Position numbers and translations under genes: made by a program. From the NCBI GenBank assembly GCA_046485245.1, contig JAWOHG010000069.1:1-54303 (forward strand): 54,303 nt of DNA. The letters run 5' to 3'. Position 1 is the stretch's first letter, and the number at the start of each line of letters is the position of its first letter. The notes beneath the pieces were generated by a model. It was not told the origin of the DNA. It saw nothing but the letters and a program-made list of their open reading frames with translations, and ran no database searches. Below are positions 15,208 through 47,355 of the stretch, one piece after another. Source of the stretch: a bacterium (GTDB lineage: Bacteria > Hydrothermota > Tepidihabitantia > Tepidihabitantales > Tepidihabitantaceae).

Positions 15208-15231
15208 CACCGCGAGGGTGCACGGCGGGAG

Positions 15232-15287
15232 TAAGGGGCGGGGAACGAGGAACGGGGGACGGGGAACAGGGGTCGGGGGTCAGGTTC
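15232..15287. repeat. Heptanucleotide array, 8 units of CGGGGAA type
   Basis: TAAGGGG CGGGGAA CGAGGAA CGGGGGA CGGGGAA CAGGGGT CGGGGGT CAGGTTC in one register, immediately upstream of the rpmF -35 box. Confidence 0.75.
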
Positions 15288-15607
15288 GAAGCAGGCTGTC
15301 GAACGCCTCGCGAGCGGGGGTTTGACGCTACATGTAGAGGGGGGAGTGACTTCCGGGGTCAATCTGTAGTTCAGAAGGCGGGCCAACGAGGCGGAAGTCA
15401 GGGGTTTGAGCGTGCGGCCAAGCGTCGGTGTCAGGGGCTGTTTCAGCCCGGAGTCCAGTTAGAGTGTCAGTTGCGGGCAGAAGCGACCGGCAAAACTGCA
15501 CTTGAGCCGACGCGCGACGGTGGCGACCAGCCGAGGTCGGACCGAGTCGACGAACGACGGGTGCAGGGGCGGACGAATGCAGGGTGTCCTGTTGGAAGCC
15601 GAAGGCC

Positions 15608-15671
15608 GTCAGCCGTGAGCGGAGGCGAGAGATTCCTCCAATCGCGCCTGCGTCGCTCCGTCGGAATGACA
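15608..15671 (+). repeat. Conserved 64-nt intergenic module (copy 1 of 2)
   Basis: GTCAGCCGTGAGC...GAGATTCCTCCAATCGCGCCTGCGTCGCTCCGTCGGAATGACA. The 43-nt core from GAGATTCC differs at one position from 45340-45382. Flanked by GCYGTRA-type heptads at 15605-15620 and 15681-15710. Confidence 0.8.
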
Positions 15672-15727
15672 CCCTGTCTTGCCGTCAGCGTCAGCTGTAA
15701 GCTGTCGGCCGCGCACTGCGTGCCGGC

Positions 15728-17068
15728 CTAGTATTGCGTCAGGTACTTGTCGATTTCCCAGGGCGTTACCTGGAGGCGCGCTTCGTCGCACTCGCGGCGC
15801 TTGGCCTCGAGGAACCGCTCGGCGATGTGGGGGCCGAGCGCGGCCTGAACAGTCCTGTCTTTCTCGAATTCGTCGAGCGCCTCGGAGAGCGACCCGGGCA
15901 GGGAGGTGATGGCGCTGCGGCGGCGCTGGGCCGCGTCGAGGAGGTAGAGGTTCTCCTCGGTCGGGGCCGGCGGCTCGAGCTTGCGGCGGATGCCGTCGAG
16001 CCCGCAGCGCAGCATCACCGCGAAGGCGAGGTAGGGGTTGCAGGACGGGTCGGGGCAGCGCAGTTCGGCGCGCACGGTCTCGGACCGGCCGGGCGCGACC
16101 TGCGGTATGCGGATGAGCGCCGAGCGGTTGACCCGGCCCCAGGAGATGTAGACCGGGGCCTCGTACCCGGGCACGAGGCGCTTGTAGGAGTTGACCAGCG
16201 GTGCGAGGACCGCGCACATCCCGCGGGCGTGCGCGAGCTGGCCGGCGATGAACTGGCGGGCGACCGTGGACAGGCCGTTTTCGCCGCGCGGGTCGCCGAA
16301 GACGTTGCGGCCGGTGCGAATGGAGAAGAGGCTCTGGTTGGTGTGCATCCCCGATCCGTTGATGCCGAAGACCGGCTTGGGCATGAAGGTGGCGAGCAGG
16401 TGGTGGCGCGCGGCCACGGTCTTGAGCGTTAGCTTGAAGGTGACTGTGTTGTCGGCGGCGCGCAGGGCATCGTCGTAGCGGAAGTTGATTTCGTGCTGGC
16501 CGACCGCGACCTCGTGGTGGGACGCCTCGACGCGCATCCCGAATTCCTGGAGCGCGTTGACCATGTCCTTGCGGACGTGGTAGGCCTCGTCGGTGTGGTA
16601 GTCGAAGTAGCCGGCGCGGTCGTGGGGCAGGGTCTGGCACTGGCCGTCGAGCTTGAAGAGGAAGAACTCGCACTCGGGGGCGGTGATGTACCGGTAGCCC
16701 ATCGCCTCGGCCTCGTGCAGTGCCTCGGTGAGGACGTGCCGCGGGTCGCCCTCGAACGGCTTGCCGCCGGCCAGTACGTCGCATATGACGCGGGCGGTGG
16801 CGTTCTCGCCGCGCTCCCAGGGAATGACGTTGAAGGTGGCGAGGTCGGGCCGCAGGTACATGTCGCTCTCGGCGATGCGGGCGAAGCCTTCGACCGACGA
16901 GCCGTCGAACCAGACGCCGCCGCGCAGAAGGTCTTCGAGCTGGCTTGCGGGCACGGTGACGCTCTTGATGGTCCCCCAGATGTCGGTGAACTGGAGGTTG
17001 ATGAATCGGATGCGCTCGCGCTTGACCAGGCTGCGGACTGCTTCGGTCGCGGTCTTTCTCGATGCCAT
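15728..17068 (-). CDS. glnA: Glutamine synthetase, type I
   Basis: Start set at the ATG at 17068 (MASRKTATEAV) with GGAGG upstream. Motifs FDGSS, NGSGMHTNQSLF and NRSALIRIP. 446 aa. Confidence 0.92.
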   Translation of the reverse strand: MASRKTATEAVRSLVKRERIRFINLQFTDIWGTIKSVTVPASQLEDLLRGGVWFDGSSVEGFARIAESDMYLRPDLATFNVIPWERGENATARVICDVLAGGKPFEGDPRHVLTEALHEAEAMGYRYITAPECEFFLFKLDGQCQTLPHDRAGYFDYHTDEAYHVRKDMVNALQEFGMRVEASHHEVAVGQHEINFRYDDALRAADNTVTFKLTLKTVAARHHLLATFMPKPVFGINGSGMHTNQSLFSIRTGRNVFGDPRGENGLSTVARQFIAGQLAHARGMCAVLAPLVNSYKRLVPGYEAPVYISWGRVNRSALIRIPQVAPGRSETVRAELRCPDPSCNPYLAFAVMLRCGLDGIRRKLEPPAPTEENLYLLDAAQRRRSAITSLPGSLSEALDEFEKDRTVQAALGPHIAERFLEAKRRECDEARLQVTPWEIDKYLTQY

Positions 17069-17106
17069 CGGTGTGCCTCCGTTGCGGATCGTTTTCGCCA
17101 CGGCCA

Positions 17107-17134
17107 AAGTTAGCGCCCGGCGGCGCGGCGTCAA
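17107..17134 (-). promoter_or_regulatory. Sigma70-like promoter of the minus-strand glnA: TTGACG-16-TAACTT
   Basis: Minus strand: cTTGACGccgcgccgccgggcgcTAACTTtgg...GGAGGcacaccgATG. Confidence 0.5.
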
Positions 17135-17157
17135 GCCCGGGGGCGCGCTCGGGCCTG

Positions 17158-17186
17158 TTGACTTTGCCGGGCGAATCGGCAAGCTT
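17158..17186 (+). promoter_or_regulatory. Promoter-like TTGACT-17-AAGCTT, 6 nt before GTG 17193 (leaderless geometry)
   Basis: gTTGACTttgccgggcgaatcggcAAGCTTaaagtcGTG. The -10 box is weak, matching the consensus only at A2 and T6. Confidence 0.45.
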
Positions 17187-17192
17187 AAAGTC

Positions 17193-18572
17193 GTGGAACG
17201 CATTACTAGGACAATTACCGAGAAGAAGGTCAGGTTCATCGACCTGAAGTACCCCGACCTGCTGGGCCGGCTGCACCACGTGACCCTGCCGATTGAACGG
17301 CTGGAGTCGGCGGTGGCGGACGGGGTCGGGTTCGACAGCTCGTCCGTGCCGGGATTCCGCGTGGTGGAGTCCGGGGACATGGTGCTGAAGCCGGACCTGG
17401 ACAGTGCGTTCATCGACCCGTTCTGCGAGATCCCGACGGTGTCGTGTTTCGCCGGGATGCACGACCCGCTGACCGGCGAGCCGTACGAGCGCGACCCGCG
17501 CCTGGTGCTTGAGCGCGCAGTGGCCGAGCTGAAGCGGGTCGCCAAGGCGCCCGAGGTGCGCATCCTGCCCGAGTTCGAGTTCTACCTGTTCAACAACGTG
17601 TCGTTCGCCAACGACGCGACCTCGTCGGTCTACCGCATCGAGAGCGACGAGCTGCGCCACGACGACCGGACCGGCCTGTCGCTTTACAAGGGCGTGGCCT
17701 ACGAGGTGGCGCCGCCGTTCGACCGCTCCTCCGAGTTCCGGTCCGAGCTGGCCGAGCTGATGGCCGCCTGCGGCCTGCCGGTGAAGTACCACCACCACGA
17801 GGGCGGCCGCTACTCGCAGGTCGAGGTCGAGCCGATGTTCATCCCGGTGGAGCGGGCCGGCGACGCGATAATGCTGACCAAGTACCTCATCCGCAACCTG
17901 GCTTTCCGGCGGGGCAAGACCGCGACGTTCATGCCCAAGCCGCTGCACGGCGAGCCGGGTTCCGGGCTCCACCTGCACATTTACATGGCCGACGGCGAGC
18001 GGTCGCTGTTTGCCGACAAGTCCGGCCCGGTCGGGCTGTCGGCCCTGGCCGCGCACTTCATCGGCGGGATAATGGACCACGCGCCGAGCCTGTGCGCGCT
18101 GACCAACCCGAGCACCAATTCCTACCGCCGGCTCACGCCTGGGTTCGAGGCGCCGGTGCTGGTGTTTTTCTCGGTCGCCAACCGCACCGCGGCCATCCGC
18201 ATCCCGGGCTATTCGGTCGCGTCGGGCAAGATGGCCATCGAGTACCGCATCCCGGACGCGACCGCGAACCCGTACCTCGGCCTGGCCGGCATCCTGATGG
18301 CCGGGCGCGACGGCATCGCGCGCAAGACCGACCCGGGACAGCCGCTGGTCGGCCGCATCGAGAGCCGGGACGAGTCGGCCGGGGCGAAGCAGCTGCCCGC
18401 CTCGCTGGCCGCGGCGCTGGGCGAGTTGCGCGTCGACCACGACTACCTGACCGTCGCCGACGTTTTCAGCCCGGCGCTGCTCGAGCGCTGGGTCGAGATG
18501 AAGATCGTCGAGGTGGACGCCGTGGCCAAGCGGCCCCACCCGTGGGAATACGAGCTGTATTATGGGTGTTAG
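17193..18572 (+). CDS. Glutamine synthetase family (type I) paralogue
   Basis: The first plausible start is the GTG at 17193 (VERITRTITEKKVRFIDLKY). Motifs FDSSS, PGSGLHLHIY and ANRTAAIRIP. 459 aa. Divergent from the other glnA. Confidence 0.85.
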   Translation: MERITRTITEKKVRFIDLKYPDLLGRLHHVTLPIERLESAVADGVGFDSSSVPGFRVVESGDMVLKPDLDSAFIDPFCEIPTVSCFAGMHDPLTGEPYERDPRLVLERAVAELKRVAKAPEVRILPEFEFYLFNNVSFANDATSSVYRIESDELRHDDRTGLSLYKGVAYEVAPPFDRSSEFRSELAELMAACGLPVKYHHHEGGRYSQVEVEPMFIPVERAGDAIMLTKYLIRNLAFRRGKTATFMPKPLHGEPGSGLHLHIYMADGERSLFADKSGPVGLSALAAHFIGGIMDHAPSLCALTNPSTNSYRRLTPGFEAPVLVFFSVANRTAAIRIPGYSVASGKMAIEYRIPDATANPYLGLAGILMAGRDGIARKTDPGQPLVGRIESRDESAGAKQLPASLAAALGELRVDHDYLTVADVFSPALLERWVEMKIVEVDAVAKRPHPWEYELYYGC

Positions 18573-32584: not shown

Positions 32585-34075
32585 CTAGCGTGAGAGGACT
32601 ATTCGGACTGAAGCCGGGCCGTCGGCAGTGACGGCGCGGCAGATGTAAGTGCCGGGTGAAACTCGGCGGCCCGTCTCGTCGCGGCCGTCCCAGAGGAGCG
32701 GGACGAGGGGCGAGGGATGGGGGGCGAGGGTGCGGACGAGGCGGCCGGAGACGTCGAGTATGGAGAGCGATCGAGTGGTCGAGTGGTCAAGTGAGAGGCA
32801 TACAGAGGAGCGGAACGGGTTAGGCGAGGCGGACAGGCGAGAGGCGGGCTGGACCACCTTCGACTCGGCAATGCCGACCGGGCCCAGGTAGGCGCGCAGG
32901 AGCGTGCCCGGCCCGGCGACGACCATCACGTTGCCGTGGGTGAGGACTGGGCCGCTGTAGTAGCAGTAACTGATGTCGTCGTGCCACAGCGTGTCGAGGT
33001 CGGGCGTGAGCGCCCAGATTCCACCTGAACCGGTCGAGGTGCTGACTGTGGCGAAGACGTTGCCCACCTCGTCGACCGTGATGCGCGGCGTGATGTCGGC
33101 AGATGCGAGCGGCGGCGAGGAGTCGAGCAGAACACCGGTGTGGCTGTCCAGGCGCAGGATGCGTGTTCCTTGCGGTAGATACAGGCTCTGGTCGCGGCCG
33201 ATGCCGTAGTTCTGCCAGGTCGAGCCGCCATAGCCGGGCGCGGTCCAGAGCTCGACGAACCCAGAGTCGGTGAGCTGCCAGCAGTAGAACAGCCCGCCGT
33301 CGCGCTGGCCATAGATTCGGCGTTCCTCACCGATGACAAACGGCAGTTCCTGGTCGCCGTCGCCGGGCAGTTCGGGCGTCCGCCAAAGCGTCTGACCGGT
33401 GTTGGCCGAGATGGCGATGAGGTACTTGGGCCGGTTGATGCCGAGGCCTTCCCACGCAAACACGAAGGTGTCGGTCATCGCGATCCACTCGGCACCGGTG
33501 TTGGGCACGGGGCGCGGGTTGGTCCAGACCGTATCGCCGGTCAGGCGGTCCAGCCGGGCAATGCCGCGTTCGGCGCATGGCGTGATGGGGTCGCCGTTCT
33601 CGGCGAACACGGCGCACCAGACGATGCCCAGCGGCGCGGTCCAGCGCGACTGCCAGAGGATGTCGCCAGTAGCGATGTCGGTGCAGAATATCGAGTCGTG
33701 ACCGGACTCGCGGAAGTTGCGCGAGTAGAGCCGGCCGTGGCTTGCGCCCATCGGGATGAACTTGCCGTCGGGCCGGTATAGCCTCGTCCAGACCGTGTCG
33801 CCGGTCCAGAGGTCGTGGCAGACGAGCGTCGCGGTGAACGGGCTGAAGGTGTAGCGGGTCGTGACAACATAGTCATGCCACACGTACACCTGCATCCCGA
33901 GGTTCGAGGGCAGGGTCTGAGCTTCCCAGAGCACCTGGCGGCTGGCCGGGCCGTAGCGCAACCTCGCCCAGCCGTTGTGTTCGTTGTTGCCGCCGACCGT
34001 GGTCCAGTCCTGCCCTGATGCAGCGGCCAGCAGCGCAAGTGTCAACAAGCCGACTCTCAATGTTCCTCCAGTCAA
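32585..34075 (-). CDS. PQQ-like beta-propeller repeat protein with T9SS CTD (tandem paralogue 3)
   Basis: Signal peptide. Repeated motifs DxxTGDxxW, LYCxD and GDTVWT. CTD: NPFRSSVCLSLDHSTTRSLSILDVSGRLVRTL...GTYICR. Confidence 0.85.
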   Translation of the reverse strand: MTGGTLRVGLLTLALLAAASGQDWTTVGGNNEHNGWARLRYGPASRQVLWEAQTLPSNLGMQVYVWHDYVVTTRYTFSPFTATLVCHDLWTGDTVWTRLYRPDGKFIPMGASHGRLYSRNFRESGHDSIFCTDIATGDILWQSRWTAPLGIVWCAVFAENGDPITPCAERGIARLDRLTGDTVWTNPRPVPNTGAEWIAMTDTFVFAWEGLGINRPKYLIAISANTGQTLWRTPELPGDGDQELPFVIGEERRIYGQRDGGLFYCWQLTDSGFVELWTAPGYGGSTWQNYGIGRDQSLYLPQGTRILRLDSHTGVLLDSSPPLASADITPRITVDEVGNVFATVSTSTGSGGIWALTPDLDTLWHDDISYCYYSGPVLTHGNVMVVAGPGTLLRAYLGPVGIAESKVVQPASRLSASPNPFRSSVCLSLDHSTTRSLSILDVSGRLVRTLAPHPSPLVPLLWDGRDETGRRVSPGTYICRAVTADGPASVRIVLSR

Positions 34076-35548: not shown

Positions 35549-37024
35549 TTACTGCTTCACAACCAGTTGAGTTGCGGTGACACCGGGCGCGCGGCATAGG
35601 TATGCGCCGGCCGGCAGTACCCGGCCCGCGTCGTCGCGGCCGTCCCAGGGGATGGGGGCGTGGGACGAGGTGCGAGGGGTGAGGGAACGAACGAGGCGGC
35701 CGGAGACGTCGAGTACCTGAAGTGGTCGAGTGGTCGAGTGGTCGAGTGAGAAGTGGACAAGAGAGCGGAACGGGTTGGGCCAGGCGCGGATTGCGGTTCG
35801 GCCGACGATCGCTTGTTCGGTGACCGCGTTCGGTGAATCGTAGACCTTCAGCAGGGTGCCGCCGCCGGCAATGGCGAGGAATCCGAAGTCGCTGATGGCC
35901 GGGTTCGAAGTACTGACGTTGAAGATGGAGTCGCACGCGATCGGCCGGAGGTCGGGCGAAAATACGTGCAGCGCACCGCCGGCGTAGCCGCCGTTGGTCG
36001 CGTACACCAGGCCGTCGGCGCCGACCGCCAAGTGGGCCGCAAAGACGGCGGTCGGGTCCTTGATGACCGGGCTTGAGTCGGTCGCCGCACCGGTCTGGGG
36101 GTCGAGCCGGACGACACGGCCGTCCGACAGGGCGTACACCGAGGAATCGGGTCCGCAGGCGAGCTGGGCCCACATCGCGGCCGGGTCCTCGCTCACCTCG
36201 TGAACCCAGCGGACGTGCAGGCTGTCGCCGTGGTCTTCGATGGCCGTCACGTTGTCGCCGCAGCGGTGGGCGTAGAGCACGCCGTCCGGCCCGGCGATGA
36301 TGTTGCCGTAGGGCGCGGTGCCGCCCGGGTGGGTATCCTCGACCAGGGCCGAGTCGAGCTTGCGGCCTGTGGCCAGGTCGAATGCATAGACCTTCAGGTT
36401 GCCGCCGACCAGGGCGCCACCGAACCCGTAGAATCGGTCGCCCGACACGGTCAGGTCGGCCGAGCCGGACACCGGCCAGACACGCGGCGTGGTCCAGACC
36501 GTGCTGCCGTCGGTGCGGTCTATGCGGGCAGTCTGGAACCCATCGCAACTCACGATGAGGTCGCCGTCCTCGGCAAAGGTCACGCTTTCGGAGAGGTACA
36601 TGTGGGCTTGGAGTGCCGCGGTCCAGAGCGTCGTGCCGCTGTCTGAGTCCAGGCAGTAGAGCGTGTCCGGGTAGGGACTGGTCAGTTCAACAGCGTAGAC
36701 CTGGTTGTCGCGGAATCCGACCGGCAGGGACCGCCCGCCCGGCGCACCGAGGTCGCGGGACCAAAGGTGGTAGCCGGACACGAGGTCGTGGCAGACGATT
36801 GGGCCGTTGGTGAAGTCGTAGCGGTAGGTGACCAGTTTGTAGTCACAGATGTAGACCTGCTGGCCGTACGAGCTGTAGGCGCTGCTGTCCCAGAGCACCC
36901 GGTCCAGGTAGGAGGTGGCGGTCGTCAGGGCCATCCCGGCCCGTCCCGCGTTTCCCCCGCCCGTGGTCCAGTCGGCGAGGGCCACAGCAGAGAGCAGGCA
37001 CAACAGCAGGGTAGTGCACTTCAT
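35549..37024 (-). CDS. PQQ-like beta-propeller repeat protein with T9SS CTD (tandem paralogue 1, operon-first)
   Basis: Signal peptide MKCTTLLLCLLSAVALA. Same collinear motifs as paralogues 2 and 3. CTD: NPFRSLVHFSLDHSTTRPLQVLDVSGRLVRSL...GAYLCR. Confidence 0.85.
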   Translation of the reverse strand: MKCTTLLLCLLSAVALADWTTGGGNAGRAGMALTTATSYLDRVLWDSSAYSSYGQQVYICDYKLVTYRYDFTNGPIVCHDLVSGYHLWSRDLGAPGGRSLPVGFRDNQVYAVELTSPYPDTLYCLDSDSGTTLWTAALQAHMYLSESVTFAEDGDLIVSCDGFQTARIDRTDGSTVWTTPRVWPVSGSADLTVSGDRFYGFGGALVGGNLKVYAFDLATGRKLDSALVEDTHPGGTAPYGNIIAGPDGVLYAHRCGDNVTAIEDHGDSLHVRWVHEVSEDPAAMWAQLACGPDSSVYALSDGRVVRLDPQTGAATDSSPVIKDPTAVFAAHLAVGADGLVYATNGGYAGGALHVFSPDLRPIACDSIFNVSTSNPAISDFGFLAIAGGGTLLKVYDSPNAVTEQAIVGRTAIRAWPNPFRSLVHFSLDHSTTRPLQVLDVSGRLVRSLTPRTSSHAPIPWDGRDDAGRVLPAGAYLCRAPGVTATQLVVKQ

Positions 37025-41488: not shown

Positions 41489-42199
41489 GTGACAGCATTC
41501 GGCATCCTGGCGCTGGTGACCGCGCTCCAGCCGCCCGCAGTCCACGCCGAGTCGCTCTACCTGAACCGCCACCTCGGGCCCGGCCTGCTGGACAGCGCCT
41601 GGACCCTCGTGGCGGATGCGCGAGCGCAGTCGCCGGCCGACCCGGCCTTGCTTGCGCTCTTGGCGCAGATGTGCGTCGAGCGCGGGGACCGTTCGGTCAA
41701 CACGGCCGGTAAACTGGCCTGGTATGACCGGGCCGCGGCCGTGGCCGACAGCCTGCGCATCGCCCGGCCTGACCTGCCGGCCGGGCACTTCTGGTGGGCC
41801 ACTGCGCGCGGCAGCGCCGGCCGCGTGCGCGGAGTGGTCAACTCGCTCGGCCTGCTCGGCCCGATACGCGCGGCATTCGAGCGGAGCGTCGAACTGGACT
41901 CGGGGTTCGCGTTGGGCTGGTACGCCTTGGGCAGGCTCTACCTCGAACTGCCGCCCGTGGCCGGGGGCAGCGCGGCCAAAGCCGAGCGCTTCCTGCGCGG
42001 AGCGCTCGCGGCCGACCCGCACCTCACCATCGCCCGGCTTGGCCTGGCCGAGGCCCTTGTCCGGCTCGGGCGCAAAGCTGAGGCGCGCGAGGAACTCGGG
42101 CGCGTACTCGGAGAGACCGCGCCGTCTCACCCGGCCGAGTTCGTGCTGTCCGACCGGCCCGCGGCAGAGGAGATGTTGCGGAGGATGGGAAGGAAGTGA
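41489..42199 (+). CDS. Secreted helical-repeat protein, paralogue of 28272-29012
   Basis: Signal peptide ILALVTALQPPAVHA. Conserved blocks shared with the 28272 product (see that entry). Confidence 0.65.
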   Translation: MTAFGILALVTALQPPAVHAESLYLNRHLGPGLLDSAWTLVADARAQSPADPALLALLAQMCVERGDRSVNTAGKLAWYDRAAAVADSLRIARPDLPAGHFWWATARGSAGRVRGVVNSLGLLGPIRAAFERSVELDSGFALGWYALGRLYLELPPVAGGSAAKAERFLRGALAADPHLTIARLGLAEALVRLGRKAEAREELGRVLGETAPSHPAEFVLSDRPAAEEMLRRMGRK

Positions 42200-42222
42200 A
42201 GAGAGGAGAAGGACGAGGGCGC

Positions 42223-42474
42223 GATGTCAGACGTGAGATGTCAGAGACCAGAGGTCAGAGGTGTCGGGCGAATGCAGAAATCAGAAGGCAGAATGGTGAA
42301 TGCAGAGTGCCCTACCTGAGCGAATGACTAATTCCAAAGGACGAATGACTAATCGAGCGCGGAATGGACGAAGAGCAAGGTCAGACCTTGGACTCTAGAC
42401 ATTCGACAGTAGGAATTCGGAATTGCCCACTTTCCACTGCATAGTCCTTTGGCCTTGATACTTGATTGCTTGCC
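42223..42474. repeat. 36-unit degenerate heptanucleotide array in a single register
   Basis: Reading in steps of 7 from 42223 gives GATGTCA GACGTGA GATGTCA GAGACCA GAGGTCA GAGGTGT CGGGCGA ATGCAGA AATCAGA AGGCAGA ATGGTGA ATGCAGA ... GACCTTG GACTCTA GACATTC GACAGTA GGAATTC GGAATTG CCCACTT TCCACTG CATAGTC CTTTGGC CTTGATA CTTGATT GCTTGCC. Confidence 0.85.
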
Positions 42475-42490
42475 CTCGCGGCGACGGCAC

Positions 42491-42518
42491 TTGACGGGCG
42501 GCGTGACGCGCTCATAAT
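42491..42518 (+). promoter_or_regulatory. Promoter of marR: TTGACG-16-CATAAT, 5 nt before ATG 42524 (leaderless geometry)
   Basis: cTTGACGggcggcgtgacgcgctCATAATggccaATG. Confidence 0.65.
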
Positions 42519-42523
42519 GGCCA

Positions 42524-42997
42524 ATGCCTACTAAGCAGGAGAGTTTCTACCTCGCCAAGCTCGAGTGGCTCGGGCCGATACTCGTGCGCGGCCTGCGCCT
42601 GATGCCGGCGGTCGAGGGGATGGAACGGGAGTTCTCCTTCTCCCAGACGCTCATCCTGATGATGCTGCTCACCCAGCAGAGCGTGAAGATGAAGGAGCTC
42701 GCCCGCCTGCTCGGGCTTTCCCGGGCCAACGCGACCGGGCTGGTGGACCGGCTGGAGGCACGCGGCCTGGTCGAGCGGCGGCACTCGACCGAGGACCGGC
42801 GGGTCGTGCACGTCAGCCTCACGCGCAAGGGCCAGCAGACTGCGCGCAAGCTCAATGAGGCCCGGCGCACGGGCCTCGCCCAGATGATGCGCCGCGTCCC
42901 GTCCAAGAACCTCTCCGTGTTCATCGAGACCCTCGAGCAGATGGCGATGGGCCTGGCCGAGACCCAGTCCGACCTGCTCCTGCCGCCCAAGAGCTGA
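42524..42997 (+). CDS. MarR family transcriptional regulator
   Basis: 157 aa. Winged-helix block LTQQSVKMKELARLLGLSRANATGLVDRLEARGLVERRHSTEDRRVVHVSLTRKG. Confidence 0.9.
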   Translation: MPTKQESFYLAKLEWLGPILVRGLRLMPAVEGMEREFSFSQTLILMMLLTQQSVKMKELARLLGLSRANATGLVDRLEARGLVERRHSTEDRRVVHVSLTRKGQQTARKLNEARRTGLAQMMRRVPSKNLSVFIETLEQMAMGLAETQSDLLLPPKS

Positions 42998-43004
42998 CGG
43001 CGCG

Positions 43005-43456
43005 GCGATTGTCGATTGACGGGCAGCCCCTCTCGCTACGCTCAGGGCGACTCGGCGTCGGATTGTCGATTGTCGATAGCCCGGCGGCGCACAGCTCACA
43101 GCTTACAGCCTACGGCTCACGGCAGGGCACATCTGACATCTGGTTTCTGACATCTCACCTCTGACCTCGCGTCCGCGATTCTGCACTCCCCATTCTGCCT
43201 TCTGACTTCTACATTCGCCCGCAGCGCAAGCGCACAGCTTGGGGCCGCAAACCACGGGACAGTCCCGTCGCCCCGGTCCGCTAGGTACAATCCCGGGTTT
43301 GCTCGGCTCACGGTTCACTCGCATCGCTTTGACATTTGGCCTTTGGCCTTTGGCTTTTGACTTAGTCCGGTGCCCGCTTCTGCATTCCCCATTCTGCCTT
43401 CTGACTTCTGCATTCGCCCGGCGATCCCTCGTCGGCGTCGGGATGACACCCCGCGG
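43005..43456 (+). repeat. Composite intergenic repeat R1 (long copy)
   Basis: 43005-43095 matches 44569-44659 at 90 of 91 nt. 43061-43221 reads as 23 heptads in one register. A second ANNCAGA-type block (reverse orientation) lies at 43377-43420. The end ...GGCGATCCCTCGTCGGCGTCGGGATGACACCCCGCGG matches the end of R2. Confidence 0.85.
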
Positions 43457-43514
43457 TACTTGAAATGGCGGCCTCGACTCTGCACACCCCCCTGCCTGCG
43501 TCCCAGTTTTCTTC

Positions 43515-43544
43515 TTGACATTGGTATTTCGTAGTCCAAACTAT
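43515..43544 (+). promoter_or_regulatory. Promoter/operator module TTGACA-N17/18-(A)AACTAT, 4-5 nt before GTG 43549
   Basis: cTTGACAttggtatttcgtagtccAAACTATttatGTG. Shares CTTGACATTGRTATTTCG, CAAACTAT and TGTGAYTGA with 37086-37128. Confidence 0.55.
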
Positions 43545-43548
43545 TTAT

Positions 43549-44583
43549 GTGACTGACATTCGACAGGCCAGCGCTACGCCCGGCCGGCTGGTCGCGGTGA
43601 CCGGGGCGGCCGGGCACCTGGGCAACGTGCTGGTGCGCCGGCTGGTCGAGGCGGGCCGGCCGGTGCGGGCGGTGGTGGCGCCGTTCGACGACCGGGGCGC
43701 GCTCGCCGGGCTGCCGGTCGAGTTCGCGGCGGCGGACGTACGCGACCCGGCCGCGCTCGAGCGGGCGTTCGCCGGGGCCGACACGGTGTTCCACCTGGCC
43801 GGGGTCATCACCATCCAGTCGGGCCAGGCGCGGTTGCTCGAGGCGGTCAACGTCGCGGGCACGCGCAACGCGATCGCTGCCTGCCGGGCCGCCGGGGTGC
43901 GCCGACTGGTCTACTCCAGCTCGGTCCACGCGTTACCCGAGCCACCGCACGGCCTGGCGGTGTGCGAGACGGGCGAGTTCCGGCCGGATGCCGTGCTCGG
44001 CGACTATGCCCGGTCCAAGGCGCGGGCCAGCATCGAGGTCAGGCGCGCGGCGCTGGACGGGCTCGACGCCGTGATGGTGTTCCCGTCGGGCATCATCGGG
44101 CCGCACGACTGGCGGCCGTCCGAGATGGGCCGGCTGTTCATCGCCTATGCCCGCGGCAGGATGCGGGCCGTGGTCGACGGTGGTTATGACTTCGTGGACG
44201 TGCGCGACGTGGCCGACGCGCTAATCAGCGCGGCCGAGCGCGGGCGCAGGGGAGAAGGGTACCTCGTGTCGGGGCATCGCATCACGGTGCGCGGCCTGTT
44301 CCGCCTGCTGGGCGAGTTCACCGGCGTGCGGCCGCCGCGGCTCAAGGTGCCGTTCCCGCTCGCGCGCGCCGGCGCGGCGCTGGCGCCGCTGTGGGCTCGA
44401 CTCACCCGTTCCAGCCCCCTGTTCACACCCTACTCGCTCGCGGTCCTGCGCTCTAACTGCGTGATGAACCGGTCCAAGGCCGAGCACGAATTCGGTTTCA
44501 GGCCGCGCCCACTGCGCGATACCGTGCTCGATACACTGGGTTGGTTCCGCTCGGTTGGGATGCTTGCTGCGATTGTCGAATGA
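43549..44583 (+). CDS. NAD(P)-dependent epimerase/dehydratase (extended SDR family)
   Basis: VTGAAGHLGNVLVRRL Rossmann motif and YARSK (YxxxK). 344 aa. The last five codons and the stop lie inside repeat R2. Confidence 0.88.
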   Translation: MTDIRQASATPGRLVAVTGAAGHLGNVLVRRLVEAGRPVRAVVAPFDDRGALAGLPVEFAAADVRDPAALERAFAGADTVFHLAGVITIQSGQARLLEAVNVAGTRNAIAACRAAGVRRLVYSSSVHALPEPPHGLAVCETGEFRPDAVLGDYARSKARASIEVRRAALDGLDAVMVFPSGIIGPHDWRPSEMGRLFIAYARGRMRAVVDGGYDFVDVRDVADALISAAERGRRGEGYLVSGHRITVRGLFRLLGEFTGVRPPRLKVPFPLARAGAALAPLWARLTRSSPLFTPYSLAVLRSNCVMNRSKAEHEFGFRPRPLRDTVLDTLGWFRSVGMLAAIVE

Positions 44584-44828
44584 CGGGCAGCCCCTCTCGC
44601 TACGCTCAGGGCGACTCGGCGTCGGATTGTCGATTGTCGATAGCCCGGCGGCGCACAGCCGACGGCCAATAGCTGACAGCTTACAGCTCGCGGCTCGCAG
44701 CAGGGCACCTCTGACATCTGGTCTCTGACATCTCACGTCTGACCTCGCGTCCCCGATTCTGCATTCAGTATTCTGCGTTCTGAATTCACCCGGCGATCCC
44801 TCCTCGGCGTCGGGATGACACCTCGCGG
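44569..44828 (+). repeat. Composite intergenic repeat R2 (short copy)
   Basis: Collinear with R1. 44625-44792 reads as 24 heptads in one register. Relative to R1 it has two more NNACAGC-type units and one fewer TCTGNNT-type unit. Confidence 0.85.
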
Positions 44829-44852
44829 CCGCGAACCGCGCGCCGCGTGCGC

Positions 44853-45002
44853 CTACGCGTGGTGCAGGACCCGGCCCGGGGTGCAGTCGGGACAGAAGTC
44901 GGACCGGCTCGTGTGGACCTCGAGGCAGTCCTCGCAGCACGGCCTGCCGCAATCGTCACATACGCAGTCGGTCATCCGGCCGCAGATTGAGCATTCTGAC
45001 AT
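44853..45002 (-). CDS. 49-aa Cys-rich zinc-finger microprotein
   Basis: The ATG at 45002 has GGAGG 7 nt upstream and its own TTGATT-16-TATAAT promoter. Sequence MSECSICGRMTDCVCDDCGRPCCEDCLEVHTSRSDFCPDCTPGRVLHHA (10 Cys; pattern CxxC-x7-CxxC-x3-CCxxC-x3-H-x8-CxxC). The track ORF begins 11 codons upstream. Confidence 0.7.
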   Translation of the reverse strand: MSECSICGRMTDCVCDDCGRPCCEDCLEVHTSRSDFCPDCTPGRVLHHA

Positions 45003-45055
45003 CTGACAACCTCCTGTGCGCCAGCGGGCGCGCATCTCACCAGTCTCTCGGGAAA

Positions 45056-45083
45056 ATTATACAGGAATTTCGGGATTAATCAA
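45056..45083 (-). promoter_or_regulatory. Near-consensus sigma70 promoter TTGATT-16-TATAAT for the zinc-finger microprotein
   Basis: Minus strand: cTTGATTaatcccgaaattcctgTATAATtttcccgag..., giving a leader of about 45 nt that ends caGGAGGttgtcagATG. Confidence 0.7.
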
Positions 45084-45100
45084 GACCGCCCGGCGGGAGA

Positions 45101-45233
45101 CGGTCAGGGGTCAGGGGACAGGGTTCGGGGATCAGCGTCCTGCCGTAAGCCGTGAGCTGTGAGCTGTAAGCTGGAAGGGGTCAGGGTTCAGGGTCCTGCC
45201 GTCAGCCGTAGGCTGTGAGCCGTGAGTCGTCAG
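45101..45233. repeat. 19-unit heptanucleotide array with a higher-order G-block/C-block structure
   Basis: CGGTCAG GGGTCAG GGGACAG GGTTCGG GGATCAG CGTCCTG CCGTAAG CCGTGAG CTGTGAG CTGTAAG CTGGAAG GGGTCAG GGTTCAG GGTCCTG CCGTCAG CCGTAGG CTGTGAG CCGTGAG TCGTCAG. Confidence 0.85.
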
Positions 45234-45323
45234 CAGTCCAGTCACCGCGAGCGCAGCGTGGCGGTCTTCCTCAGAAGATTGCCACGGCCGCCAAAGCGGC
45301 CTCGCAATGACCAACCTCCTGAT

Positions 45324-45420
45324 GTCAGCCGCGAGCCGGGAGATTCCTCCAATCGCGCCTGCGGCGCTCCGTCGGAATGACAAGTGGGGTGGCGCTGGAC
45401 GGCGCTCCGTCGGAATGACA
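45324..45420 (+). repeat. Conserved intergenic module (copy 2) plus partial tandem copy
   Basis: The 43-nt core at 45340-45382 matches 15629-15671 at all but one position. GGCGCTCCGTCGGAATGACA is repeated at 45401-45420. Confidence 0.8.
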
Positions 45421-45475
45421 GGCCGCCAACCGGCGCGCGGGGCTGCACGTTCTTGTGGCGCTGAGGCGCGGGGGA

Positions 45476-45484
45476 TGGTAGAAT
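45476..45484 (+). promoter_or_regulatory. Extended -10 promoter TGgTAGAAT, 8 nt before ATG 45493
   Basis: gaTGgTAGAATgcgctacaATGtcg. No SD sequence. Near-leaderless geometry for the first gene of the EPS operon. Confidence 0.55.
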
Positions 45485-45492
45485 GCGCTACA

Positions 45493-47355
45493 ATGTCGAG
45501 TTTGCATATCCGAAGGACAATTGGCGTCGCCGCGGCACTGCTGCTGGCAGTCGCCTGCACGGGGCGGGGCAAGCAGACCGGGGCCGCGAGCTCAGGCGAT
45601 GCGCTGGTATACCCGCGGGTGCTGTTTCTGACCACGGGCTCGGACGGCCTGGGGCAACTGCCGTCCGGCGCCAACATCTGCCTTGAGGCTTTCAACGGGC
45701 TGGGCGCGTTCGCCGAGGTCGCGGACAAGTCGGTGCTGCTGGAACGCGCGCGGCTGGATTCGGTGCGCATCATCGTCGCGCCGACCATCGCGGGGTACCA
45801 CGATGGTGACCGGCTGTTTTCGCTGTCGTTCCTCGACAGCGCCGGGATGGCGAACCTGGCCGAGTGGGTGCGCTCGGGCGGCATCCTCATCGCGGGCGAG
45901 AACATCGGCCGCAACACGGTCGAGGGCGAGGACCGCGCGATTTCGGGCGGGGTCGTGGAGGCTTCGGAGTGGCCGCTGGCCGAGGTGTTCGGCTACTCGA
46001 TGCGCGAGGTGAACCTGACCGGGTTCCGGATGGTGAAGGACTCGGCCGCAGGCCTGCTCGACGGTTACCGGGATGACCTCACGCGGACGCTCGAGGGCGA
46101 CTGGCTGCTGGTGCCGGCGGAGTCGGCCGGCGGCTTCCGCACGCTCGCACGCTGGACCGACGGCAGCACCAGCTACCCGGCCGTGACCGCCAACCCGTGC
46201 GGCCGGGGTTGGGGCATACTGGTGCCGCACTTCCTGCTGCTGCAGCCTTCGATTGACGGCGGGGCCGGCGACGCATCCGCGATTGCCGGGTTCTGGCGCG
46301 GGGTGTTCGCGCTGGCATTGGGCGACGGGCCGGCGGTGTGCTTCAACCCGTGGCCCGGGCCGTATCGCAGCGCGCTGGCCGTGACCTTGAACGAGGCGGG
46401 CGGGGACAGCGCTGTCCCGGGGCCGAAGGCGATGCTGGCCGAGCTGCTGCGCACCGGCGGCATGGACCGCGTCACGGTGTTCGCGACGGGCCTGGTGCCG
46501 GGACCGGTGCTCGACTACCTGAAGGGCGACGGCCGGGTGGAGCTGGCCAGCCTGAGCTTCCGCCACCCGCGGTTCTCGGACCTGGACTACTGCCGCACGC
46601 TGTGGGAACTGGCCCGGTTCGAGGACCACGTGCGCCGGCCGGTGCGGGGTTTCCGTTTCCCGTTCAGCAACCGCACCGCGGCCGGGATGTTTATCCTGAG
46701 CCGGCGCGGCTACAAGTACGAGTCGTCGATACACGTCGATCACGCGACCGGGTACGCCGGCGCGCTGTTTCCCTACAACATCCCGACCTGGGTCCAGGAC
46801 CAGTACTGCCTGGTCACCTCGATGCTGGAGCTGTCGCCGACCGTGGAGGACTGGAGCTACTTCGGCGCCGGGGCGCTGGCGTCGAGCTATCCCAAGGCGG
46901 TGCAGGAGCGGGACGCGCAGCGGTTCGGGGCGCGTCTGCAGGCAGCCTGGCGTGACCTGGTGCGCGCGCGGCGGGGGATGATGGTGCTGAGCCTGCACGC
47001 GCTGTACTCCGGACACTCCCCGACGACGCTGGCGCCGGCAATGGCGTTCCTGGCCGAGGCGGCCGGGGCGGGCGACGTTTGGCTGGCCGGGCTGGAGGAC
47101 ATCGCGGACTGGTGGAATGCGCGGCGCAACGTCGACATACGCGTTCAGGCGAAGCAAGACCGCACCGTGGTGAGTCTAACCAATCGTAACCCGGAACCGG
47201 TGCGCGGCCTGACCATACGGCTGGACGACCCGGCCCTCAATGCAACCGCGCGGGGAGTGACCCTGCGCCGTCTGGAGCGAACCGAGGATGACGGGGTTTT
47301 TGTCTATTTGACGTTCGACCTCGTGACTGACGGCGAGGTGGAGGTTCACCGATGA
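45493..47355 (+). CDS. Lipoprotein of the EPS locus, with a GATase1-like N-terminal fold and a degenerate NodB-like C-terminal region (tentative)
   Basis: Start moved to the ATG at 45493 (MSSLHIRRTIGVAAALLLAVAC lipobox). The upstream 62 track codons run through the conserved repeat module. C-terminal FRHPRF and FRFPFSN resemble NodB motifs, but no TFDDG is present. Confidence 0.7.
   Translation: MSSLHIRRTIGVAAALLLAVACTGRGKQTGAASSGDALVYPRVLFLTTGSDGLGQLPSGANICLEAFNGLGAFAEVADKSVLLERARLDSVRIIVAPTIAGYHDGDRLFSLSFLDSAGMANLAEWVRSGGILIAGENIGRNTVEGEDRAISGGVVEASEWPLAEVFGYSMREVNLTGFRMVKDSAAGLLDGYRDDLTRTLEGDWLLVPAESAGGFRTLARWTDGSTSYPAVTANPCGRGWGILVPHFLLLQPSIDGGAGDASAIAGFWRGVFALALGDGPAVCFNPWPGPYRSALAVTLNEAGGDSAVPGPKAMLAELLRTGGMDRVTVFATGLVPGPVLDYLKGDGRVELASLSFRHPRFSDLDYCRTLWELARFEDHVRRPVRGFRFPFSNRTAAGMFILSRRGYKYESSIHVDHATGYAGALFPYNIPTWVQDQYCLVTSMLELSPTVEDWSYFGAGALASSYPKAVQERDAQRFGARLQAAWRDLVRARRGMMVLSLHALYSGHSPTTLAPAMAFLAEAAGAGDVWLAGLEDIADWWNARRNVDIRVQAKQDRTVVSLTNRNPEPVRGLTIRLDDPALNATARGVTLRRLERTEDDGVFVYLTFDLVTDGEVEVHR

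Follow-up and report, generated by a model that had tools for sequence, protein, structure and literature searches.

How does the gap between two bacterial genes come to be filled with short repeated sequences, and does such filling serve the gene that follows it? The question is raised by the DNA upstream of a marR gene in a member of the Hydrothermota, on contig JAWOHG010000069.1 of assembly GCA_046485245.1, of which positions 1 to 54,303 (54,303 nt, hereafter the window) were analysed. The spacer concerned (42200-42523, not assigned to a strand) consists of 324 nt of non-coding, locally period-7 DNA lying between the stop codon of a TPR-repeat gene (41489-42199, plus strand) and marR (42524-42997, plus strand; Pfam MarR, 3.7e-17), and its GC content is 54% as against 68% for the genome. 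An earlier note, made from the sequence alone, had read 42223-42474 as one unbroken array of 36 degenerate heptanucleotides set between the TPR stop at 42199 and the marR -35 box at 42491; the sequence, the coordinates, the listed unit families and both flanks are as it described them. The spacer is probably fast-evolving heptanucleotide repeat DNA, akin to the long simple sequence repeats (LSSR) of many genomes and to the short tandemly repeated repetitive (STRR) sequences of cyanobacteria, which would have grown by duplication in multiples of seven nucleotides and by ectopic recombination and would have no specific role for marR.

Periodicity and modules of the marR spacer

The period-7 signal in the spacer is real. 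Across 42223-42474, bases seven positions apart are identical at a frequency of 0.502, compared with 0.252 +/- 0.028 in 1000 dinucleotide-preserving shuffles (z = 8.9), and the comparison with composition-matched shuffles that had been proposed in the earlier note thus came out in favour of the signal. The double and triple lags appear as harmonics (z = 5.7 for 14 nt, z = 4.4 for 21 nt), and apart from these three no lag between 1 and 28 rises above z = 3. Neighbouring units are indeed alike, 19 of the 35 unit-to-unit transitions having at least four of seven bases in common, and the lack of a codon-position GC signal in 42187-42524 agrees with the claim that the spacer has no coding character.

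The signal is, however, local. The assertion of a single register without slip would be informative only if phase were kept, because any sequence can be divided into sevens, and phase is lost beyond 50 nt: the enrichment of same-phase matches falls from z = 12 at 7-21 nt to z = 2 at 22-49 nt and to about 0 past 50 nt. The middle third of the spacer (42307-42390) has no significant register-specific column composition (p = 0.22), nine transitions (at 42314, 42321, 42356, 42363, 42377, 42384, 42426, 42440 and 42468) have only zero to two of seven bases in common, and the longest perfect period-7 tract measures 14 nt. Tandem Repeats Finder (TRF), run at a relaxed score of 30, does report period 7, but for 42226-42262 only and not for the whole spacer. 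This first block amounts to three copies of a 14-mer, in which the odd units are conserved (GAKGTCA) and the even ones variable.

What the spacer is made of becomes clearer when it is compared with its relatives, that is, with contigs encoding close marR homologues, which carry the source name 'candidate division WOR-3'. The closest, L130, is a metagenome-assembled genome (MAG; GCA_965649315.1) whose marR is 99.8% identical to that of the window at the nucleotide level; L002-L005 are four independent Logan assemblies with 95% marR protein identity, and the remainder stand at 96% (L131), 94% (L132), 87% (L001 and L006), 67% (L134) and 59% (L133) marR identity. An exact search for the marR protein of the window itself yielded no record.

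On the minus strand, 42214-42263 forms a module, here called A, that reads CACC TCTGACC TCTGGTC TCTGACA TCTCACG TCTGACA TCGCG and corresponds to the six GANGTCA units of the earlier note. A second module, B (42265-42306, minus strand), reads TCTGCAT TCACCAT TCTGCCT TCTGATT TCTGCAT TCGCCCG and corresponds to its five ANNCAGA units. Both recur as inverted copies in two other window spacers lying within 3 kb, module A at 44706-44755 (92% identity) and 43128-43177 (86%) and module B at 43379-43420 (95%), 43180-43221 (90%) and 44758-44787 (87%). Since the variant heptamers follow one another in the same order at each locus, for example TCTGACA TCTGGTY TCTGACA TCTCACS TCTGACC TCGCG, the modules are copies of one another and not products of independent slippage and drift. 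Their arrangement varies, B preceding A on the minus strand at marR and A preceding B at the other loci. Nor do the two modules share a register: the TCAGA core (TCTGA on the other strand) stands in phase 3 in the first block and in phase 1 in the second, and the minus-strand TCTG starts of B and A lie 47 nt apart (6 x 7 + 5), which sets module B 5 nt off the TCTG register of module A. Exactly at this junction L130 carries a 1-nt indel.

To the right of these modules lies a tandem duplication of a 21-nt (3 x 7) unit (42321-42355, plus strand; CGAATGACTAATTCCAAAGGA / CGAATGACTAATCG); L002-L004 have the unit as a single copy, the duplicated form being shared by the window and L130. It is followed by a right-hand module (42363-42473, plus strand) composed of AAGGTCAGACC, four GACNNNN units, two GGAATTS, two YCCACTK, one CTTTGGC and two CTTGATW, the 3' end of which is common to the orthologous spacer of the 95% relatives. 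An alignment of 42314-42473 at about 75% leads to L002:11607-11773, a different locus beside a Zn-ribbon gene, and the only part orthologous to the marR spacer of L002 is 42420-42522, which aligns to L002:9388-9490 at 80.6%. Given that copies of A and B occur elsewhere in the window and that the right half matches another locus of L002, the marR spacer seems to have been largely assembled from pre-formed, dispersed modules. The suggestion of local tandem duplication followed by drift therefore survives in part: duplications in multiples of seven do occur (21 nt here, 28 nt past marR, as described below), but most of the spacer would have arrived ready-made.

Neighbouring arrays and the history of the spacers

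In the 87% relatives 79 nt separate the TPR-repeat gene from marR; the 95% relatives have a spacer of 213 nt there, and the window and L130 one of 324 nt. The TTGAC...CATAAT promoter and the position of the start codon are conserved at all three lengths. The core promoter itself (TTGACG-16-CATAAT, 42491-42518, plus strand) lies outside the repeat and is kept in all relatives, with or without arrays. Its -10 box, CATAAT (within 42513-42526), stops 5 nt ahead of the ATG; because the start codon follows so closely, the marR mRNA is probably leaderless, and this would be conserved across the WOR-3 relatives. The 87% relatives have GTG where the window has ATG, and the arrangement is kept in L001, L006, L133 and L134.

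Modules A and B and the 21-nt duplication are gains of the window over L002, from which it also differs in the middle module; module A is missing from the orthologous spacer of L002-L004 and present in L130. As the independent MAG L130 reproduces 42214-42523 with 2.3% mismatches, the spacer is not an assembly artefact, a concern that the earlier note had raised. Even between the window and L130 the arrays are in motion. A 28-nt (4 x 7) indel separates the two in the module B past marR, the orthologous module A is only about 90% alike, L130 holds an extra GC-rich mini-element (net +34 nt) inside module A of the composite repeat that follows the epimerase gene, and the remainder of its spacer between marR and this gene is rearranged. 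In the same pair the third codon positions of marR differ at 0 of 158 sites and those of the epimerase gene at 3 of 345, and the array upstream of marR differs at 7 of 309 sites. Fisher's test gives p = 0.049 against the third positions of the two genes taken together (3 of 503) and p = 0.003 when all gene sites are the reference. Between the window and L002 the promoter-proximal array differs by 20%, compared with 18-28% at third positions.

A census of the 54 kb of genome in the window, by a sliding lag-7 scan and by per-segment z-scores set against some 40 other low-coding segments, places the marR spacer within a cluster. Four consecutive spacers are strongly period-7 (42187-42524, 42983-43593, 44505-44875 and 44952-45601; z = 5.3-8.5), a weaker signal (z = 3) comes from the spacer that separates the glutamine synthetase gene from rpmF (15.1-15.4 kb), and the approximately 40 remaining low-coding segments of the window have no period-7 signal, so that arrays occupy five window spacers altogether. 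Relatives with at least 94% marR identity, L130 and L002-L005 included, have contigs dense with arrays. The possibility of a one-off duplication relic, also considered in the earlier note, thus falls away, with four consecutive spacers between 42.2 and 45.3 kb, the marR spacer among them, and the close relatives all carrying arrays. About 70 kb from WOR-3 relatives with 59-87% marR identity holds no arrays at a threshold of 0.55, bar one marginal segment of 57 nt, and because these more distant relatives are array-free the expansion seems to be recent and confined to the 68% GC clade.

The neighbouring spacers show how such modules are combined. Past the marR stop, 43002-43230 (plus strand, about 230 nt) is a composite of GATTGTC units split by a GC-rich mini-element of about 43 nt, a CACAGCT-type array, module A and module B; it is a direct repeat of 44566-44787 (84-89%), and its content is polymorphic among L130, L131, L002 and L132. 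Further along the same spacer, in 43327-43456 (plus strand), module B recurs in a second copy (43379-43420), accompanied by an array of CTTTGGC type (43327-43359) and by a tail rich in GC, GGCGATCCCTCGTCGGCGTCGGGATGACAC. The other copy of the composite (44566-44828, plus strand) starts within the last 18 nt of the gene for an NAD-dependent epimerase (43549-44583) and provides its stop codon.

The epimerase end allows one transfer to be followed in some detail. Its GATTGTC units stem from the native 3' coding end of the gene, where L002 reads ...GCG GCG ATT GTC GAT AGC... (AAIVDS). In the window a GC-rich element of about 43 nt, with GATTGTCGA(T) on both sides and one additional GATTGTC, has been inserted there and brings a new stop codon, so that the epimerase ends in AAIVE* instead of the AAIVDSSAANG* of L002; the called lengths are 344 aa (window) and 334 aa (L002), the called start sites differing too. 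The copy past marR (43002-43230) includes the epimerase 3' coding end, GCGATTGTCGA. An 'empty' version, GGCGATTGTCGATAGCCCG, follows marR in L131, the whole segment is lacking from L002 and L132, and on its right the pasted segment is bounded by the CACAGCT-type array present at both loci. Because an epimerase coding end also sits after the marR stop, a piece of one spacer, coding sequence included, appears to have been pasted into another, and gene conversion anchored in the arrays would give such a result.

The mini-element deserves a description of its own. It is about 43 nt long (…GACGGGCAGCCCCTCTCGCTACGCTCAGGGCGACTCGGCGTCG), lies at 43021-43065 and 44584-44628 and is nested in GATTGTC units. 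A related 42-nt variant (L130:2427-2468, and also in L131) splits module A and folds into two small hairpins (z = -2.7). The mini-element looks like a tiny mobile element targeting heptamer arrays.

Two further array-bearing regions were characterised. Between the Zn-ribbon gene (44853-45035, minus strand) and the divergent gene at 45307 (plus strand), 45102-45238 (plus strand) comprises GGTCAGG-type and AGCTGTG/AGCCGTG-type arrays, which together form a composite of about 70 nt repeated twice, and has a G-quadruplex-type motif at 45107; in L130 the region is 97.5% identical. The 580-nt glutamine synthetase-rpmF spacer contains a G-rich array (15214-15301, plus strand; GGGGCGG GGAACGA GGAACGG GGGACGG GGAACAG GGGTCGG GGGTCAG), and pieces of CACAGCT type and GGGATGACAC type lie at 15600-15700. 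In the 95% relatives this spacer is 438 nt long and differently composed: the promoter-proximal 75 nt are identical, the remainder is remodelled, and rpmF differs at 2 of 192 positions. The heptamer families near marR thus include CACAGCT/AGCCGTG, GGTCAGG, CTTTGGC, GATTGTC and a G-rich GGGRNNG type. The arrays at 15254-15279 and 45107-45130 fit the canonical G-quadruplex motif, like the G-rich heptamers of Xanthomonas and Nostoc; the motif (G3+N1-7, four times) occurs in the window at 15254, 32700, 36935 (minus strand) and 45107, and not in 42223-42474.

Some observations on the surroundings may be recorded here. L130 departs from the window exactly at array borders (about 42214 and about 45238; L130:1-60 and L130:2975 onward), it has a peptidase S8 gene in place of the gene at 45307, and both ends of its contig lie inside arrays; these breaks reflect either real rearrangement at the repeats or a mis-join or break of the MAG. 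The gene order of the window up to the Zn-ribbon gene is backed by L002, L003 and L005. The region downstream of marR is a variable spot (window 42998 onward, L001:4377-5451, L006:10475-15115, L130): UbiA directly follows marR in L001, L006 has a 3.7-kb insert with FMN_bind, ThsB_TIR (defence-like), DUF2188 and Kelch genes, and the epimerase gene occupies this spot in the 95-99% clade and in the 59% relative L133. Elsewhere in the window, perfect or near-perfect 8-nt tandem repeats at 35721-35748 (AGTGGTCG x3.5) and 32771-32793 (TCGAGTGG x2.9) lie inside the C-terminal domains, of type IX secretion system (T9SS) type, of two PQQ-repeat paralogues, where they encode SLDHSTTR, and the same genes have weakly period-7, G-rich coding stretches just downstream (32682-32748 and 35634-35707). 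At 15728-18572 two divergent glutamine synthetase genes stand back to back; their long open reading frames (ORFs) overlap by about 800 nt (15728-17563, minus strand; 16728-18572, plus strand), and the gene calls of L135 place the starts about 120 nt apart.

Heptanucleotide repeats in other lineages

The locus belongs to a broad class of intergenic heptanucleotide repeats of LSSR or STRR type, because it combines head-to-tail repetition of 7 nt, intergenic location, dispersal and strain variability; it belongs to none of the named families. As related in PMC4679880 and PMC4692102, Mrazek et al. 2007 found heptanucleotides to be, for most genomes, the most abundant class of long simple sequence repeats (SSR), Burkholderia, Actinobacteria and Xanthomonas belonging to the richest, and proposed an origin from the polymerase footprint and slippage; in the same accounts such LSSRs are intergenic and hypervariable among close relatives (PMC4679880, PMC4692102). 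The window has in common with this class its intergenic 7-nt tandem arrays, many different unit sequences per genome and a sporadic phylogenetic spread that takes in GC-rich genomes. It differs in that its units are far more degenerate (perfect tracts of at most 14 nt), several families are concatenated, and degenerate modules are copied between loci. Literature searches found no report of heptanucleotide arrays in WOR-3.

The STRR sequences of heterocystous cyanobacteria (Mazel et al. 1990, as cited in PMC4692102) had been named in the earlier note as the closest precedent, and the analogy is a fair one. They too are dispersed intergenic heptanucleotide tandems with several families per genome. 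Their consensus heptamers are CCCCAGT (STRR1), TTGGTCA (STRR2) and CAACAGT (STRR3), of which the window has none in tandem. The host of the window is non-cyanobacterial and GC-rich, and its units are degenerate where those of STRR are near-perfect.

The further claim that a GC-rich lineage offers no described equivalent does not stand, as heptanucleotide arrays have been published for Xanthomonas, Burkholderia and Geobacter metallireducens. Two Xanthomonas species carry GGGAATC-type repeats, at 186 and 183 intergenic loci respectively, and Nostoc has repeats of GGGGA(C/T)T (Rehm et al., 2015; PMC4692102); the Xanthomonas arrays vary widely in length and sequence at the same loci among close relatives, and some form inverted pairs (PMC4692102). 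Xanthomonas resembles the window in its GC-rich genome and in the quadruplex motif of the neighbouring arrays at 45107 and 15254, and differs in having one dominant family instead of many; the marR spacer is without G-tracts, and the window holds no GGGAATC tandem. In Geobacter metallireducens, GGACCGG x4 is present in 49 copies and MTYCTGA x5 at 16 sites, mostly paired, and the arrays were annotated as putative sites of a global regulator, a role that is only predicted (Aklujkar et al., 2009; PMC2700814). Like the modules of the window these are multicopy elements of four to five heptamers that BLAST matches whole, and tandem MTYCTGA is a rotation of TCTGACT/TTCTGAN, the core of modules A and B. 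The window contains no GGACCGG tandem, and MTYCTGA is found singly inside copies of module B (42281 on the minus strand, 43199 and 43398) with no adjacent pair in the window; the Geobacter sites are mostly inverted pairs, and the modules of the window have no local inverted partner.

Direct repeats of TAACTGA are known from marine Beggiatoaceae, some Cyanobacteria and Bacteroidetes, and binding of S1, Csp or CsrA has been proposed for them (MacGregor, 2015; PMC4679880). With the window they share intergenic heptamer tandems, a CTGA core and a sporadic spread across phyla. These near-perfect, oriented repeats cover the ribosome-binding site just ahead of start codons, whereas the arrays of the window lie upstream of a -35 box or downstream of stops, in both orientations; the window has one single TAACTGA copy and none in tandem. 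Another point of comparison is the small dispersed repeats (SDR) of Nostoc, reportedly described by Elhai and co-workers in 2008 as nested in repeats, which the mini-element of about 43 nt nested in heptamer arrays recalls. These SDR, together with repetitive extragenic palindromes (REP), bacterial interspersed mosaic elements (BIME) and REPIN, are like the window in being modular, dispersed and strain-variable intergenic repeats. REP and BIME differ in their palindromic stem, which the heptamer modules lack, and no transposase or REP-associated tyrosine transposase (RAYT) was seen among the scanned window ORFs.

A scan of a genome collection with TCTGACNTCTNNNNTCTGACNTCT returned at least 120 stretches (L007-L126), with some 17 chance matches expected over the entire collection if bases were equifrequent. 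Among the matches listed, Acidobacteriota, Verrucomicrobiota, Cyanobacteria, Bacteroidota, Deltaproteobacteria, Planctomycetota, Chloroflexota, Nitrospirota, Actinomycetota and Firmicutes are represented, which makes at least ten phyla, and nearly every one of these matches is recognisable as a (TCTGACY)n array with 4-24 units. In 842 kb around the listed arrays, TRF found non-seeded repeats of period 7 in 176 cases, as against 19 of period 6, 12 of period 8 and 16 of period 9; the period-7 repeats have dozens of different unit sequences, and the counts come from loci preselected for one heptamer array. Overall this fits a widespread heptamer phenomenon, in line with the published picture.

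The listed arrays also have a polarity. An inverted (NNTCAGA)>=3 partner lies within 150 nt on the 5' side in 39 of 125 and on the 3' side in 1, compared with 20 of 625 control windows, and the pairs among the matches listed are nearly always of the form (GGTCAGA)n-loop-(TCTGACC)n with loops of 0-88 nt, the same paired, inverted architecture as in Geobacter. Most listed pairs stand between co-directional genes. A role as bidirectional terminators between convergent genes was considered and rejected, 17 of the 39 being co-directional and 1 convergent, and an apparent closeness of arrays to start codons proved to be an artefact in which stops in all three frames define the start of the longest ORF.

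Function, origin and significance

The suggestion of a structured or sponge RNA, made in the earlier note, finds no support where structure is concerned: the minimum free energy of the spacer does not depart from that of shuffles (z = -1.08 on the plus and +0.15 on the minus strand), modules A and B have no stem beyond shuffles (z = +0.47 and +0.60), and Rfam gives no match at the gathering threshold over the whole window or at E <= 1 over 41.9-45.5 kb, so that a structured non-coding RNA or known RNA family was set aside. ARAGORN found no tRNA or tmRNA, a scan for intrinsic terminators was negative, and a BLAST search of the spacer against plasmids and phages gave no match. A metagenome scan with the core of module A, TCTGGTNTCTGACATCTCAC, gave three matches, all on contigs of 43-55% GC without a heptamer array and without BLAST similarity to the window; judged from these three unrelated matches only, the clade would not be represented in the scanned metagenomes. 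Several further candidates were rejected. A marR operator is at odds with the presence of arrays in unrelated spacers and with the array-free DNA ahead of the orthologous marR in the 87% relatives. A phase-variable contingency SSR does not fit a longest perfect tract of 14 nt in an array lying upstream of the -35 box, outside the -35/-10 spacer. Against iterons or a replication origin stand the presence of just one 21-nt unit, in 1.7 copies, the lack of rep and dnaA genes in the neighbourhood and a cumulative GC skew without sustained reversal.

How, then, might the spacer have arisen? Starting from an ancestral gap of about 80 nt, it would have grown by two routes, tandem duplication and deletion in multiples of 7 nt on the one hand, and on the other the transfer of ready-made module copies from spacer to spacer, in which the arrays would have served as anchors for ectopic recombination or gene conversion. 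In this way repeat DNA, as neutral or selfish filler with at most incidental effects, would have come to lie downstream of the MMPL/LolA-like/TPR operon and upstream of a marR core promoter that stayed the same. A specific marR function is absent in the most likely reading, because no constraint on the array sequence is detectable. Several points nevertheless weigh against this account. Neutrality is inferred from only two or three pairwise sequence comparisons, and the raised divergence of the arrays could reflect gene conversion among paralogous copies instead of absent selection. Slippage gives no reason for a period of 7, and with a longest perfect tract of 14 nt the arrays are too degenerate to slip now. 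The account does not cover the clustering in four consecutive spacers, nor does it say why, downstream of genes in the window, the strand rich in pyrimidines tends to be the sense strand.

Two functional readings have been weighed against the filler. On the level of DNA, the arrays would modulate marR and neighbouring promoters by offering tandem sites, with two helical turns to every three units, to a regulatory or architectural protein; arrays do adjoin the marR -35 box on its upstream side and also occupy promoter regions at the epimerase gene, the Zn-ribbon/45307 pair and rpmF, deletion of heptamer repeats altered the behaviour of the recO promoter in Nostoc, and the regulator sites annotated in Geobacter (PMC2700814) are a parallel. 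This reading is unlikely, given that the 87% relatives have the same marR and promoter with an array-free 79-nt spacer, that at least eight unit families within 3 kb leave no single candidate site, that the arrays occur in both orientations and in every type of intergenic context, that they diverge at or above the synonymous rate, and that the register between blocks is not kept even in the 99% relative; the regulator-binding or architectural array named as one candidate in the earlier note is not supported. On the level of RNA, transcribed arrays in 3' or 5' untranslated regions could act as unstructured platforms for Rho utilisation (rut) or for the binding of cold-shock proteins, S1 or CsrA-type proteins, or as sponges. 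The modules are unstructured, a rut-like strand, C/T-rich and G-poor and the sense strand of the upstream gene, is found at 43087-43420 (marR), 44650-44790 (epimerase), 15235-15279 (glutamine synthetase) and 42426-42474, and the binding proposed for TAACTGA repeats (PMC4679880) is of this kind. It is improbable all the same: modules A and B (42214-42306) are purine-rich and in the opposite orientation downstream of the TPR-repeat gene, the array sequence is without constraint, and the 125 listed cross-phylum arrays, by crude home-made ORF calls, show no bias downstream of genes (39 sense, 41 antisense).

Mobility offers another kind of explanation, in which the modules are non-autonomous elements of the REP, BIME or miniature inverted-repeat transposable element (MITE) type and depend on a transposase encoded elsewhere in the genome. 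Dispersed copies of 86-95% identity in both orientations, polymorphic in presence among 95-99% relatives, would suit such elements, and so would the mini-element of about 43 nt with GATTGTCGA(T) on both sides, its empty site in L131, and the related, hairpin-forming element (z = -2.7) that splits module A in L130 and L131. Modules A and B themselves, however, have no terminal inverted repeats or hairpin, their order varies between B-A at marR and A-B elsewhere, no transposase, RAYT or reverse transcriptase came up when about 30 window ORFs were compared with Pfam, and the pasted segment holds epimerase coding sequence, which points to recombination and not to the transposition of a defined element; transposition of this type is an unlikely alternative, much like the two functional readings. 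Somewhat less still is to be expected of a yet more speculative idea, an active, lineage-specific process that, in place of passive slippage, seeds and spreads arrays, be it a tiny mobile element whose insertion and excision leave target duplications of 7-10 nt, for which the mini-element with GATTGTCGA(T) and an additional GATTGTC at its sides is a candidate, or a template-switching polymerase. If true, it would make the WOR-3 clade, whose arrays differ at 99.5-99.8% gene identity, a handle on why long SSRs are so often heptameric, and the 39:1 polarity with which (GGTCAGA)n...(TCTGACC)n pairs occur in many phyla might find its explanation there. An origin of the pattern in chance, biased composition or mis-assembly is essentially refuted. 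Only block 1 reaches a TRF score of 30, and L130 diverges at array borders and has its contig ends in arrays, where assemblers struggle; yet z = 8.9 against dinucleotide shuffles speaks against chance, and the recovery of the spacer in an independent MAG and of its right part in three independent Logan assemblies speaks against an assembly error.

In sum, fast-evolving repeat DNA without a specific marR role is the reading to be preferred, and the regularity and novelty of the array were overstated in the earlier note, although the phenomenon exists and is striking on a local scale. Heptanucleotide repeats as such were already known in 1990. The locus reveals no new regulatory mechanism for marR; it adds a new phylum, WOR-3, to the lineages that carry such repeats. 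It also comes with a warning for annotators and MAG assemblers, as spacers of this kind are hotspots of recombination and of mis-joins. Finally, because near-identical strains show spacer growth, indels of 21 and 28 nt and segment exchange, the dynamics of the arrays can be reconstructed, and the series of strains at 99%, 95% and 87% presents the same spacers growing from 79 to 324 nt, gaining and losing modules and exchanging segments.

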